DNA of 40,071 nt from a virus, in UHGV virus genome UHGV-2079066; one strand, given 5' to 3'. The position numbers and the translations under genes are program-made. This document shows, piece after piece, positions 1-38,792 of the stretch (positions are counted from its first letter, which is position 1; each line of letters opens with the position of its first letter). The notes under the pieces were generated by a model that was not told the DNA's origin, did not search any database, and saw nothing but the letters and a program-made list of their open reading frames with translations.

Positions 1-73
1 ACGTAGCGCAGCCTGGTAGCGCACCGTCATGGGGTGTCGGGGGTCGGAGGTTCAAATCCTCTCGTGCCGACCA
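1..73 (+). tRNA. tRNA-Pro (anticodon GGG inferred); first ~4 nt cut off by window edge
   Basis: seen: D-arm GCGC/AGCCTGGTA/GCGC, anticodon loop A-T-GGG-G-T, T-arm GGAGG/TTCAAAT/CCTCT, acceptor 3' strand CGTGCCG then A-CCA ending at 73. known: pattern matches recalled enterobacterial tRNA-Pro. Anticodon stem has one U-U mismatch, so isotype is not certain. Confidence 0.75.
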
Positions 74-30541: not shown

Positions 30542-30745
30542 TTACTGCTTGTGTTGAGAATTGTTAAGTTTGCTGTAGAGAGAAGCGTCGTATTTCAACT
30601 TCCCGTTCGTAATTCTTTCAATGTAAAGAGCCTGTTTTTCTGGGATTACTTCACCCCATTGACATACGGCACTGTGAGTTACCCCTAAGGCAACTGCGGT
30701 TTTAGAAATGCCGCCGTAGTAGTCGACGACTGTCCCTTTATGCAT
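30542..30745 (-). CDS. cro: Cro-like repressor (YdaS/Cro-type HTH)
   Basis: seen: 67 aa, GGISKTAVALGVTHSAVCQWGEVIP HTH; divergent from cI across an operator region. Confidence 0.75.
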   Translation of the reverse strand: MHKGTVVDYYGGISKTAVALGVTHSAVCQWGEVIPEKQALYIERITNGKLKYDASLYSKLNNSQHKQ

Positions 30746-30845
30746 GGTTTGAATCCTCTTTAGTTAGCATTCTTACATCGTATATGGACAGCATACTTAC
30801 GTCAATAAAATGTAAGATTGCTAACGTACATTCCGAGGAGATTTT
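30746..30845. promoter_or_regulatory. OR region: divergent pR/pRM promoters with dyad operators GT(A/T)AG-N4-CT(A/T)AC
   Basis: seen: gttagcattcttac (30763-30776) and gtaagattgctaac (30812-30825); TTGACG and TATA-like hexamers on the cro strand; GAGGAG SD for cI. Confidence 0.6.
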
Positions 30846-31478
30846 ATGGATACCGTTGGCAGCAGACTGAGATTTAGAAGAAAGCAGAAAAAACTTACCC
30901 AGCGCGATGTGGCTGAGTGGGCAGGAGTAAGCGCGTCTGCTGTGACCCAGTGGGAAAGTGATTTAACAAAACTTTCTGGTGAGAACTTGATATTGGTGTG
31001 TAAATGCCTTCAGTGCTCGCCAGAATGGTTGGTTTTTGGTTCAGGCGATATCGAAAATGGCATTAACATCAACTTGATGTCTGCCAGAGAGGTCCCTCTC
31101 ATATCATGGGTGCAAGCTGGTAATTGGACGGAAGTAATTGGAAATCCTAATAATGAACAAGTGAAAACCACTCGAAAACTTTCTGATTCCGCCTTTGCTT
31201 TGAGGGTTAAGGGAGATTCAATGACTTCTAGCCAGGAGTTGAGTATTCCTGAAGGTTCTATTGTTATTGTTGAACCAGAGTTCGGCTTCGTGGATGAGGC
31301 AAACGGTAAAATTGTCGTTGCTCAAACGGTATCTGGTGGTGAGGCAACTTTAAAAAAGCTGGCGATAGACCCACCGTTTTCGTACCTAATCCCACTGAAT
31401 CCTGCGTTTAAACCCATTGAGGTGAATCAAGAGACCAATCTAATTGGGATAGTTAAACAAATTATCATTGACCTTTAG
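30846..31478 (+). CDS. cI: CI-like repressor (HTH_XRE plus LexA-type S24 autopeptidase domain)
   Basis: seen: N-terminal LTQRDVAEWAGVSASAVTQWE; Ala-Gly in VQAGNW; Ser in KGDSM and downstream Lys. Confidence 0.9.
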   Translation: MDTVGSRLRFRRKQKKLTQRDVAEWAGVSASAVTQWESDLTKLSGENLILVCKCLQCSPEWLVFGSGDIENGININLMSAREVPLISWVQAGNWTEVIGNPNNEQVKTTRKLSDSAFALRVKGDSMTSSQELSIPEGSIVIVEPEFGFVDEANGKIVVAQTVSGGEATLKKLAIDPPFSYLIPLNPAFKPIEVNQETNLIGIVKQIIIDL

Positions 31479-31495
31479 CCCCTCTGGTTCCTACA

Positions 31496-31522
31496 AGCCC
31501 GCTGATCATGCGGGCTTTTTTA
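31496..31522 (+). terminator. rho-independent terminator after cI
   Basis: seen: agcccgc-tgatcat-gcgggct followed by T6. Confidence 0.7.
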
Positions 31523-31538
31523 TGCCTGTGAAAATATA

Positions 31539-31589
31539 GTAAGCAAACTTACAAAATAGACTTGACTGTAAATGTAAGATGTCTAATAT
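31539..31589 (+). promoter_or_regulatory. pL-like promoter with OL operator: -35 TTGACT (31562-31567), -10 TAATAT (31584-31589)
   Basis: seen: 16-nt spacer; perfect 14-bp palindrome GTAAGcaaaCTTAC (31539-31552) matches the OR operator motif; further gtaag half-sites in the spacer. Confidence 0.5.
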
Positions 31590-31625
31590 TAAATCCATCA
31601 GCAACGAACATTGTGGGCATCAGGA

Positions 31626-31829
31626 ATGAAGATAGAGTTGGTTGTTAACGGGAAAATTACTGCTGAGTGCAGTGATGAATCGGAGTTTCTGGCATTCAAT
31701 GCTGCCGTTTTTAGCGCTCTATCGGACATGCAACTTACCCTTCATTCCGAACGAAGGGCTCGTTCAAAATCTAAAATGGCGGCCTTCAATGAGAAGTTTT
31801 TTAAAACGGATCCCACGGGTCGCAATTAA
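31626..31829 (+). CDS. hypothetical small protein, first ORF after pL (not N-like)
   Basis: seen: 67 aa from ATG 31626; weak SD; no arginine-rich N-terminus. Confidence 0.4.
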   Translation: MKIELVVNGKITAECSDESEFLAFNAAVFSALSDMQLTLHSERRARSKSKMAAFNEKFFKTDPTGRN

Positions 31830-32034
31830 GAGAATCAAGAAGCTTAATGGTTTGATAGGTGATGGCTTCCTGTTTAACAGTGTTTTCTGGGCTTGACAGT
31901 TGATCGCGCAATAATTGTATTTGGTTATGCAGGTCATCTGATAGTGGGCCCTCATTAGCACATATTGCAGCTGAAATGGTCTTAATCGCAGCTTCAATAG
32001 CAGTGAGTCTTAACTCAATAATATCGTTATTCAT
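31801..32034 (-). CDS. hypothetical small acidic helical protein, antisense to the early-left operon
   Basis: seen: 77 aa MNNDIIELRLTAIEAAIKTISAAICANEGPLSDDLHNQIQLLRDQL...; 3' end overlaps 31626-31829 by 29 nt; weak SD. Confidence 0.35.
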   Translation of the reverse strand: MNNDIIELRLTAIEAAIKTISAAICANEGPLSDDLHNQIQLLRDQLSSPENTVKQEAITYQTIKLLDSLNCDPWDPF

Positions 32035-32645
32035 AGGTTTATCTTCTTGGCTGTGTGAGAACTCCAAGAATACCACTGAGCCTGATGTGGTGAAAAGACA
32101 GGCAGCAGTTGCAGTACGGCATATGGCACATGTGCCGCAGCAGTCCGGGGATTCCTTGCAAGACATATCCAGATCCAGCGGGTAGCCGGAATATGCAAGC
32201 CAGGCGTGTACGGCAGCCAGAGACGTTTCACCAGCGTGGCGATCAGGTGTGACACCTCGGAAGAGACGAGTCCATAACCAAAAGAGCGCTGGCATGCAAA
32301 AAACATCTCGCAGCCGTTGCAGTACCAAAAGCCAGGATGGGGCGGCAGAACGCGGTAGTGCTCTTTTTGATGTGGTAAACCCGTAGTAGCTGTACCAGAT
32401 GCTGTGTGTAGTCTTGGCGGTACCAGGGTCTTCAACCTTATGCAAGGGGGACGAAGATAATGTTCTACCTCGGTACCGCCCTTTTTACACAACAGACAAG
32501 GGCATCACCGGGCGACGGGCTCATAACCCAATCCACCCGGGCAAAAAGAAAGCGGTCTCTCAAGCCGCCAACCAATGCAGGTGCCCTTCTCTGTTGTGTA
32601 TGGAGAAAGTTCGGCGGTGGCAGCCGCCTTAACGAGGGTAAAACC

Positions 32646-33017
32646 ATGAGTAATGACCGCATGACCGTAGTGCCAGATTTTCTTGGCGAACTGGATGCCG
32701 GCGTGTTCATGAACAAAATCGCGGCAGCACTTAATACCACCGCGCTTGGCGTTCTGAACAACGGCAACAAAGGCAAAGTAGTCCTCACCTTTGATTTTGA
32801 GCGCATGGGTAATTCCGTTGAAGAGAAGCGCGTGAAGATCAAGCACAAGCTGAACTACAGCACCCCGACACCTCGTGGTAAAGCCTCCGAAGAGGACACA
32901 ACCGAAACCCCTATGTGGGTCAACAAAGGCGGGAAGCTCACCATACTGCAGGAAGATCAGGGGCAACTATTCGGGATCACCGGCGCGGTGGATGGAAAGC
33001 TTAAAGCGGCTCAGTGA
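32646..33017 (+). CDS. hypothetical early protein (124 aa)
   Basis: seen: ATG 32646 with GAGGG SD; the track ORF has a 62-codon upstream extension of poor composition. Confidence 0.6.
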   Translation: MSNDRMTVVPDFLGELDAGVFMNKIAAALNTTALGVLNNGNKGKVVLTFDFERMGNSVEEKRVKIKHKLNYSTPTPRGKASEEDTTETPMWVNKGGKLTILQEDQGQLFGITGAVDGKLKAAQ

Positions 33018-37267: not shown

Positions 37268-38446
37268 ATGGCAGCCAGGCCAAGAAAAAGAGAATACCGC
37301 CATCTACCCGAATATCTAATATTCGATAAAGATCGCGGCGTTTATAAATTTACGCTTATAACTGGGAAAAAAAAGAATATCGGTAAAGACAGGGCTGTAG
37401 CGATCGCTATAGCCCGTGAATACAACCTCAGAATGAGGCCTACAAATGTACCATCAGTAGAAATACTTGTCCGTGAATCTGGCGGTGTAACGGGGGAGGC
37501 AAAACCATTTGCTGAACACGTAGATCATATTATGGAGCGGGCGATTGAGAATGAGCGCCCTTCACAGAATACACTCGACGATTGGAACAACGATGCTCTG
37601 AGGGTAAAAGAATTCTTCATCAGCATACCAGCTTGCGATATTGAGCTGGAGCATGTGAACGCCTATATAAACCACTACCATGCCGAAGCATCAGCAAACG
37701 TACAAAACAGGAAAGTCAGCTTTCTTAAAAAATTATTCTCCTATGCGGTCGATGAATCGCTAATGTTCGATAACCCGGCAACCCGTAAAAAAATGCGTAG
37801 GATAGAAGAGAAGAAACGCCAGCGCCTCTCACTTGATAACTTTAAAGCTATCAGGCGCGCAGCTGAACCATGGTTACGGACCGCGATGGATTTGGCATTG
37901 CAGACAACACACGCACGATTGGAGGTTTCACGGATCCGTTACTCCATAAGAGAGCCTAAAGACGGCATCTGCGGGTGTCTATGGTTAGCACAACCAGAAA
38001 ACGGTATTTATGGGACGCTATACATCCACAGGCAGAAAGTGCAAAAAAAAGAGGCATCTCACGTTGCAATCCCGATTGGGGAAGAGTTGAAGCGGATAAT
38101 TGACGATAGTCGAGATAATGTTGCCAGTCCGTTTGTCGTTCACAGAATCCCAGAACGGCAGGTTAAACGCAGCAAAGAGGTTTCACACCCTACTCAAGTT
38201 GCACCGGATTATTTAAGTCGGTCGTTTTCAGCTACGCGTGACATGCTAGGTTTATGCGACCATCTACCGATGGACGAAAGACCAACCTTTCACGAAATCA
38301 GAGCGCTGGCTGCGCATCTTTTCGATCAGCAGGGTATCGATCCACAAGGGCGAATGGCACATAGCGATGCGAAATCAACAAAGATCTACACGCAAAACCA
38401 TATCGACTGGGTAGTAGTTCCTCATGGCGAGATTCAGACAGCATAA
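37268..38446 (+). CDS. int: tyrosine integrase
   Basis: seen: 392 aa; C-terminal HEIRALAAHLF...KIYTQNH carries the His-x-x-Arg and catalytic Tyr of the R-H-R-Y family; adjacent to att. Confidence 0.9.
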   Translation: MAARPRKREYRHLPEYLIFDKDRGVYKFTLITGKKKNIGKDRAVAIAIAREYNLRMRPTNVPSVEILVRESGGVTGEAKPFAEHVDHIMERAIENERPSQNTLDDWNNDALRVKEFFISIPACDIELEHVNAYINHYHAEASANVQNRKVSFLKKLFSYAVDESLMFDNPATRKKMRRIEEKKRQRLSLDNFKAIRRAAEPWLRTAMDLALQTTHARLEVSRIRYSIREPKDGICGCLWLAQPENGIYGTLYIHRQKVQKKEASHVAIPIGEELKRIIDDSRDNVASPFVVHRIPERQVKRSKEVSHPTQVAPDYLSRSFSATRDMLGLCDHLPMDERPTFHEIRALAAHLFDQQGIDPQGRMAHSDAKSTKIYTQNHIDWVVVPHGEIQTA

Positions 38447-38753: not shown

Positions 38754-38792
38754 AAACCCTGATGGTTGGCGCCGTCAGGGTTTTTACTTTTT
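38754..38792. terminator. hairpin terminator (stronger on plus strand) just past the ImmA-like stop
   Basis: seen: aaaccctgatggttggcgccgtcagggttt followed by ttactttttt on plus strand. Confidence 0.45.

Follow-up and report, generated by a model that had tools for sequence, protein, structure and literature searches.

The present study concerns a stretch of approximately 600 bp (32040-32645) that lies downstream of the putative early-left promoter, pL, of one temperate phage. The analysis covered 40,071 nt of this phage (hereafter the window) and focused on positions 31830-32645. We interpret the 600 bp as the untranslated leader of a repressor-controlled early-left operon, built of RNA modules, with transcription inferred to start at pL. 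Its central module of approximately 160 nt, which we call the core, is a plus-strand structured RNA under selection. An earlier reading of the window made without database searches (the sequence-only reading) had treated the 600 bp as a single entity and had named a structured or regulatory RNA as one explanation for it. The strand-specific covariation of a conserved family supports that explanation. However, the stretch comprises at least five separate modules, one of which is an RprA-like small RNA (sRNA) module with a terminator.

Ninety-one distinct copies of the core align over approximately 155-165 nt; their boundaries are sharp, and they share long invariant blocks and a fold of five helices and a pseudoknot (Table 1). 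In a MAFFT alignment, 97.8% of cells paired and both sides changed in 10 pairs; controls with slid partners gave 21-55% pairing. None of 500 shuffles matched the observed paired fraction, the cells or pairs changed on both sides, or the covariation score. A model-fitted alignment that added more distant members, and that leans toward the model, gave 98.0% pairing and 13 pairs with changes on both sides. RNAalifold missed P2 on the MAFFT alignment because this variable hairpin was misaligned; when each variant was folded separately, P2 formed in nearly all of 60 distinct variants, with inner stems that differed in sequence. The covariation of the pseudoknot rests on a single CG-to-AU double change, which is present in mEp460 and Stx2a_1447. 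G-U pairs are abundant in the core and compatible with the plus strand alone. Since they would read C-A on the other strand, we consider the core to be a plus-strand RNA. The folding energy of the single core sequence was indistinguishable from that of shuffled sequences (z = -0.01 on the plus strand and +0.96 on the minus strand). Therefore, the case for the core rests on covariation and not on stability. A search of the window with the covariance model built for the core, R1, returned one copy and no second.

The sequence-only reading had found no convincing coding frame in 32040-32640, which our comparison confirmed; the decayed gene and the unrecognised gene that it had listed as further explanations were left without a conserved frame or a protein family. 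A Pfam scan of every open reading frame (ORF) in 32040-32645 returned zero matches, and the sole PHROG match was marginal (phrog_36251, E = 0.0016, to a 153-amino acid (aa) minus-strand ORF). In a RefSeq E. coli prophage that is 99% identical, no coding sequence (CDS) is present between the ORF77 homologue and rdgC. Scoring of all six frames among the 91 homologues of the central 160 nt revealed no conserved frame: on either strand, every frame was stop-free in at most 45% of the sequences. Differences in spacer length were not multiples of three, and variability had no codon periodicity. Hypothetical proteins are annotated over the core or its flanks in mEp390 (L008 2077-2319), mEp460 (L134 2363-2731, minus strand) and a further locus (L004 2566-3084). 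These annotations in deposited phages are probably artefacts, and the product of one of them, mEp390_036, is Cys-rich and implausible. Thus, although mechanical ORFs of 47-214 aa span the stretch and some phage records place a hypothetical CDS on it, we regard a decayed or unrecognised protein-coding gene as scarcely credible.

To search IMG/VR, we took a pattern of 20 nt from the best conserved block of the core; it matched at least 120 viral contigs. Of 5426 complete E. coli genomes, 119 carried the core in a BLAST search, in no case with an annotation; one copy is in enteropathogenic E. coli (EPEC) E2348/69. Among species-representative genomes with listed titles, true pattern matches came from Kosakonia, Citrobacter, Phytobacter, Kluyvera, Erwinia, Klebsiella, Superficieibacter and Escherichia, and 12 of the 12 genome matches with listed titles were from Enterobacterales. 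The variable-gap pattern used genome-wide was too loose (true matches were 14 among the first 100 loci, and the others were due to chance), and the host range is therefore supported weakly. Together, the host restriction and the invariant unpaired blocks suggest a conserved host partner. The covarying family that the covariance-model search and comparative alignment revealed in related phages was absent from Rfam 15: a scan of the whole window at the gathering threshold returned the tRNA at 1-70 only, and at E values up to 10 nothing lay over 32112-32274 save a chance match to mir-344. A literature search by conserved core strings and by topic found no description of the core. On these grounds the core appears to represent a widespread family not found in Rfam or the searched literature, and its function is proposed here from sequence and context.

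BLAST matched individual parts of the 600 bp, at 72-97% identity, in temperate phages of very different kinds: lambdoid phages of Klebsiella and E. coli, mEp390, mEp460, SfV, SfII, ST64B, Stx2 phages, epsilon15-like podophages and phages deposited as Stenotrophomonas phages. Among the lambdoid phages, these parts are nearly always found directly past the repressor gene, in DNA that bears no annotation. In annotated lambdoid phages, whose repressors are unrelated to one another, the core is located 150-240 nt past the repressor gene, on the same strand, before varied early-left genes. Within 130 nt upstream of the core, a strict promoter-like site was found in 37 of 108 distinct contexts (controls: 12, 1 and 3), and the distance from the -10 hexamer to the core in those 37 was 7-55 nt. 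Many upstream sequences have a TTGAC-type promoter with palindromic operator-like flanks. In epsilon15-like phages, the terminase and portal genes flank the core, which is on the strand opposite to them, preceded by an operator-like palindrome and followed by a tRNA-Arg (SPN1S), a pseudo-tRNA called by PGAP (E2348/69) or small accessory genes. The SPN1S tRNA is tRNA-Arg(UCU) (L003 2499-2865). The pseudo-tRNA of E2348/69 is 113 nt long, with the acceptor stem UUGUGGU/ACCACAA and then CCCA (L258 3005-3347).

Some variant arrangements were also recorded. Epsilon15 itself carries P1 and half of P2 only, followed by a terminator and a small gene (L001 2409-2508 and 2502-2575), and the depositors marked an adjoining hairpin on the opposite strand as an RNase III site. 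One locus contains two tandem copies of the core approximately 650 nt apart in the same orientation (L017 3997-4157 and 4804-4962, minus strand), and in another the core is directly linked to a tRNA or tRNA-like gene (L161 2214-2886). The 99%-identical prophage of E. coli VREC0761 represents a natural core-deletion allele, in which the first approximately 145 nt of the core is replaced by a variant 3'-end tail (AGCCCAGACGATATCTGAGTGGCT...; L002 3605-3662 versus window 32104-32270); the AGCCCAGACGATATCTGAGTGGCT end comes after GGUGAC in approximately 17 other contigs. In Stx2a_1447, the immunity region that holds the core also contains a C4 antisense RNA (83.6 bits) and isrK (67 bits), both beside the antirepressor gene (L137 128-316, minus strand).

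In the window, the core is 520 nt downstream of the operator-bearing pL. An operator copy, AAATGTAAGATGTCTAA, is located at 31570-31586 between the hexamers of this promoter, and the motif also occurs in the cro-cI intergenic region (30808-30824, plus an inverted copy at 30763-30783). Since the operator repeats the cro-cI motif, the promoter at 31562-31590 is likely under repressor control, and we infer from its sequence that it is pL. Two small convergent ORFs, ORF67 and ORF77, and a conserved 70-nt segment separate pL from the core in the window and in a few relatives.

The RprA-like module, T1, is the sole strong plus-strand terminator between pL and the post-integrase terminator at 38754. 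It carries the RprA 3' motif, UGCUGUGUGUAGUCUU. Like RprA (RF00034), an Hfq-dependent sRNA of the host, it has the 3' block that is most conserved in RprA, UUGCUGUGUGUAGUCUUUGCC, directly followed by a Rho-independent terminator. Against E. coli K-12 rprA, the motif has 16 consecutive identical nt and matches at 18 of 19 positions; it also agrees with the Rfam RprA consensus. In contrast, the sequence upstream in T1 differs from the 5' domain of K-12 RprA when compared by eye, and T1 lies inside a phage pL leader while RprA is under its own envelope-stress promoter. The window gave no match to the RprA model at E values up to 10. Relatives of T1 scored 48.8-50.2 bits, below the gathering score of 70, and we therefore describe T1 as RprA-like and not as a curated member. 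We counted 62 occurrences of the motif among the loci compared, accompanied by at least seven covarying terminator stems of different sequence. In 36 of 76 contexts, a T1-like module followed the core on its strand at a distance of 118-815 nt; in none was it upstream or inverted. These sequence features suggest that phages copy the motif of a host envelope-stress sRNA.

DicF is an sRNA from a repressor-controlled early-left-type operon, the dicB operon of the dicA-dicC-dicB locus in prophage Qin. T1 has a similar terminator (UUGGCGG...CCGCCC); however, its motif is RprA-like and not DicF-like. The match of the window to DicF (RF00039) was weak (16.6 bits, E = 0.31-1.5), and membership was rejected against the gathering score of 48. 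A low-threshold Rfam scan of the region returned this match, a Trp-leader-like terminator and chance matches only.

The sequence downstream of P6 has been replaced in at least 23 ways among the core contexts, and thus there is no conserved expression platform. A recurring unit in these flanks is a long hairpin with a CAAC...GUUG base and a stem that differs in sequence between phages. Two such units, M1 and M2, are present in the window. The fold of 32262-32500, which includes M1, has a z of -2.5, and M1 is 95-97% conserved in 14 loci. For M2, the fold of 32480-32660 reaches -69.6 kcal/mol (z = -4.46; none of 200 shuffles was as good), and its 5' half is 77-93% identical in SfV, ST64B, mEp460 and an Stx2 phage. 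In other phages, the CAAC/GUUG units have loops that resemble a T arm, or they directly adjoin tRNA-like and STnc100-like modules. ARAGORN identified no tRNA or tmRNA in the window modules. Modules that start with UGGUGAAU and end with CACCACAACCCA follow hairpin modules past the core in several loci (L082 4039-4255, minus strand; L007; L098; L042). Their ends resemble a tRNA acceptor stem with CCA, suggesting a tRNA origin for these prophage sRNA modules.

The module after the core in L082 is STnc100-like (45.7 bits against a gathering score of 47). STnc100 and PasD have been described as prophage sRNAs near Q and lysis genes (bioRxiv 10.64898/2026.05.13.724894). RNAs of the STnc100/PasD/StxS type and the window modules are alike in being structured lambdoid-prophage RNA modules between a promoter and an operon. 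However, STnc100-type RNAs are tied to the late (Q/pR') region and the window modules to pL, and the window has no STnc100 match. The core contexts of D6, SPN1S and E2348/69 also resemble the stable RNAs of phage tRNA clusters in that the RNA lies among tRNA or tRNA-like genes. This likeness is one of context, and most lambdoid core contexts have no true tRNA adjacent. The T4 RNAs known as species 1 and 2 are such stable RNAs without an assigned function; they are co-transcribed with the tRNA cluster and presumably released by tRNA-processing enzymes.

The reading that we favour, and hold only tentatively, is that the core acts in cis, as an RNA through which RNA polymerase gains resistance to the terminator in the leader, and that terminated transcripts yield an RprA-like sRNA. 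After prophage induction or infection, pL would be transcribed through ORF67 and then antisense through ORF77, and the transcript would next meet the core, M1, T1, M2 and the YfdP-YfdQ-YfdR early-left genes, in that order. The nascent core would fold and stay bound to the transcribing RNA polymerase, as put RNAs do. Polymerase with the core bound would pass T1 and the long, untranslated and highly structured leader and so reach the early-left genes, while transcripts stopped at T1 would be Hfq-type sRNAs with the RprA 3' motif that act on host RprA targets. We count in favour of this reading the position of the leader, which is that of nutL and putL, the strict order of the core and then T1, the restriction to Enterobacterales combined with invariant unpaired blocks in the core, the precedents in HK022 and HK639, and two points described below, namely the local likeness of the P1 base to put stem I and the collection whose names mEp390 and mEp460 bear.

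In HK022, put RNAs act by themselves, on the beta' zinc-binding domain, and putL lies just downstream of pL (PMC9378689). Both put RNAs and the core map to the early-left transcript shortly after a repressor-controlled pL, are folded, contain invariant nucleotides and occur only in enterobacterial phages without a lambda-type N/nut site at that position. As with put, the early promoter is upstream of the core, and the core is on the strand transcribed from it. HK639 has one annotated putL-like antiterminator RNA, 126 nt long and approximately 75 nt after pL, and no right-hand copy. The core differs in size and fold, with approximately 160 nt, five helices and a pseudoknot against approximately 70 nt (126 nt as annotated in HK639) and two stems in put. 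The base of P1 in some core variants (A-CGGCG...CGUCG-N-AGCG) resembles the lower helix of put stem I. HK022 putL (L133 780-800, minus strand), the putL-like RNA of HK639 (L260 34288-34312, minus strand) and some cores share 5' A-CGGCG...CAUGCGUCG-(N)-AGCG. The shared base includes a G-U at the third pair and is not significant by covariance model or hidden Markov model (HMM); from the sequences, it could be either remote homology or chance.

The sequence-only reading had offered a cis-acting antitermination element as an example of a regulatory RNA. The position after pL and the precedent of HK022 and HK639 agree with this example, but the core is not a detectable member of the put family, and covariance-model and nhmmer searches for homology to put RNAs were negative. 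By analogy with put, the core may have antitermination activity and depend on the beta' zinc-binding domain. A lambda-type nut site was also rejected. The only trace of boxA (YGCUCUUUA) in the window leader, GCUCUU, lies inside the M1 stem, and among 122 contexts a strict boxA was present after the core in 2. No N-like family emerged when the ORFs were scanned against Pfam and PHROG. The phages of one collection have been described as Nus-dependent, in a paper that does not mention mEp390 or mEp460 (PMC11893012); these two carriers of the core bear names of that collection.

Several observations weigh against antitermination in cis. R1 had no match at HK022 putL or the HK639 putL-like RNA, nhmmer with the core HMM had none in the put RNAs of these phages, and the core has C or A where put has G35, a residue that HK022 put cannot do without. 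A second, putR-like copy after pR was not found in the window; HK639 also lacks an annotated putR, and a right-hand copy is thus not a universal feature. A crude terminator scan downstream of the core revealed no enrichment (37 of 83 contexts versus 23-54 of 83 in controls), and we do not regard a terminator as a constant feature of the 3' flank. In several phages, a coding gene begins approximately 30-40 nt after the core without a terminator. VREC0761 retains the same prophage with most of the core deleted, and the core of the window departs from the family at three near-invariant positions, two of which weaken the closing pairs of P3 and P6. Furthermore, the core begins approximately 10 nt after a tRNA within an operon in the P1-like phage D6 (L136 2333-2600), and in epsilon15-like podophages it heads a short unit with a tRNA or tRNA-like module. 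These last arrangements look more like a processed RNA gene.

The main rival explanation is an early RNA, stable after processing, with a role in trans, for example in host takeover, in anti-defence or as a protein-binding decoy; it is possible and almost as likely as the cis role. Under this rival, the flanking hairpins, tRNA-like modules and terminator would release the core from the pL transcript, and the leader would be a cluster of RNA genes. In every case the core is exchanged as a unit with sharp ends, next to 3' flanks of at least 23 kinds, an RprA-like module follows it in 47% of contexts, and L017 has it twice in tandem. It also keeps company with RNA genes, as shown by the tRNA upstream in D6, the tRNA-Arg downstream in SPN1S, the tRNA downstream in a Phytobacter prophage, the pseudo-tRNA in EPEC E2348/69 and the STnc100-like module in L082. 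However, several phages have the core as the plain 5' untranslated region of a coding gene, without an obvious processing signal or terminator, and action in trans does not require the enrichment of the core just past repressor-controlled promoters.

The other explanations, including the decayed gene discussed above, are less likely than these two. Invariant junction and loop nucleotides, variable P2 and P3 and a pseudoknot are an architecture typical of aptamers and ribozymes, as expected if the core were a riboswitch that senses a ligand, or a self-cleaving ribozyme, within the early leader. We consider this improbable because the at least 23 unrelated sequences after P6 leave no conserved expression platform, the domain as a whole is not enclosed by a helix, a search of Rfam 15 matched none of its riboswitch or ribozyme families even at E = 10, and there is no apparent association with metabolic genes. 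Conservation at the level of DNA, either as a protein-binding site or as a recombination linker at the joint between the immunity and early-left regions of mosaic phages, is very unlikely. Although the region is strongly mosaic, unrelated phages have module boundaries in common and GGCACATGTGCC within P1 is a perfect DNA palindrome, the compensatory changes and strand-specific G-U pairs indicate selection on the RNA fold. One column of the palindrome has C in place of U in 18 sequences; this change preserves the P1 pair but disrupts pairing within the palindrome.

The convergent 67-aa plus-strand and 77-aa minus-strand ORFs noted in the sequence-only reading are real and overlap by 29 nt. ORF77 belongs to phrog_28250, and is annotated in E. 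coli VREC0761 as the hypothetical protein WP_001058060.1. ORF67 had no family match in Pfam or PHROG; it is intact in the related contig L113, with a closely similar product. The boundary that had been drawn between ORF77 and the empty stretch shifts in part: ORF77 ends at 32034, and 32040-32111 is a conserved segment by its start. This segment is 89-100% identical in 22 of the loci compared, where it adjoins differing minus-strand ORF starts. It may hold the minus-strand promoter of ORF77 (TTTTCA-18-TGgTATTCT, complement of 32096-32067), a candidate that was found by eye and not called by the promoter scan. If this is true, ORF77 transcription from it would be antisense to the pL transcript. 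GC content climbs at 32000, from approximately 0.40-0.45 to 0.51-0.54. The YfdP-like gene beyond the leader is homologous to sb37 of ST64B, and its phrog_204 alignment begins at Met 32646, the start codon. The window represents a temperate phage adjoining a tRNA fragment at 1-70 (plus strand, 5'-truncated, 41.4 bits, at the window edge), which is probably the prophage attachment site. An integrase-like ORF is located at 37268-38446.

Table 1. Coordinates of the leader modules, the elements of the core and the neighbouring features in the window
Feature	Position	Strand	Description
cro-like gene	30542-30745	-	
LexA/cI-type repressor gene	30846-31478	+	
Terminator downstream of repressor gene	31495-31517		
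Putative early-left promoter pL	31562-31590	+	Promoter scan: sigma70-like TTGACT-16-TAATAT
ORF67	31626-31829	+	ORF list; 67 aa, first gene after pL; Arg-rich stretch SERRARSKSK
ORF77	31801-32034	-	77 aa, acidic, convergent with ORF67; phrog_28250 full length, E = 3e-39
Conserved 70-nt segment	32040-32111		Hairpin UUCUUGG...CCAAGAA at 32044-32070
Core structured RNA, approximately 160 nt	32112-32274	+	Covariance model R1, 147.8 bits, E = 6e-43
Core P1	32117-32137	+	CGGCAUAUG-GCA-CAUGUGCCG
Core P2	32144-32182	+	Variable hairpin, closed by UCCG/CGGG; loop begins UUCCUU
Core P3	32193-32196 with 32208-32211	+	GUGC/GCAC
Core P4	32223-32226 with 32234-32237	+	ACGU/GCGU, invariant loop UUCACCA
Core pseudoknot	32229-32232 with 32246-32249	+	P4-loop CACC with GGUG
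Core P6	32255-32259 with 32267-32271	+	CCUCG-GAAGAGA-CGAGG, loop GAAGAGA
Hairpin module M1	32275-32375	+	Long stem AACCAAAAGAGCGCUG with GUAGUGCUCUUUUUGAUG, closing a branched insert
RprA-like sRNA module T1	32376-32486	+	Motif UGCUGUGUGUAGUCUUGGC at 32400-32418 and intrinsic terminator
T1 terminator stem	32416-32424 with 32472-32480	+	GGCGGUACC with GGUACCGCC, then CUUUUU at 32481-32486
Hairpin module M2	32486-32600	+	ACACAACAGACAAGGGCA with UGCCCUUCUCUGUUGUGU around a branched insert
Small hairpin	32613-32628	+	Fold; GGCGGUGGCAGCCGCC, then Shine-Dalgarno GAGGG at 32634-32638
YfdP-like gene	32646-33017	+	First coding gene past the leader; phrog_204, E = 1e-41

To our knowledge, there are very few natural examples of elongation control by RNA only, namely the put RNAs of HK022 and HK639. 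The core is approximately twice the size of put, is supported by covariation, and occupies a put-like map position in more than 100 temperate enterobacterial phage contigs; its carriers include Stx2 phages, SfV- and mEp-type phages, epsilon15-like podophages and a P1-like phage. We speculate, with considerable reserve, that it represents a third class of nascent-RNA processive antiterminator, structurally unrelated to put, which would reprogramme enterobacterial RNA polymerase where the early-left operon begins in many temperate phages, Stx2-converting phages and an EPEC prophage among them, and would be coupled to the release of an sRNA that mimics RprA. The mechanism by which N-less lambdoid phages pass early terminators becomes directly testable. 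The core may equally be an early phage RNA of a new kind, with an activity that is catalytic or directed against defence. The covariance model would correct spurious Cys-rich hypothetical proteins in several phage records. Even if antitermination is wrong, the core is a well-defined, unannotated pseudoknotted RNA that is predicted to be expressed at the earliest point of the lytic programme.

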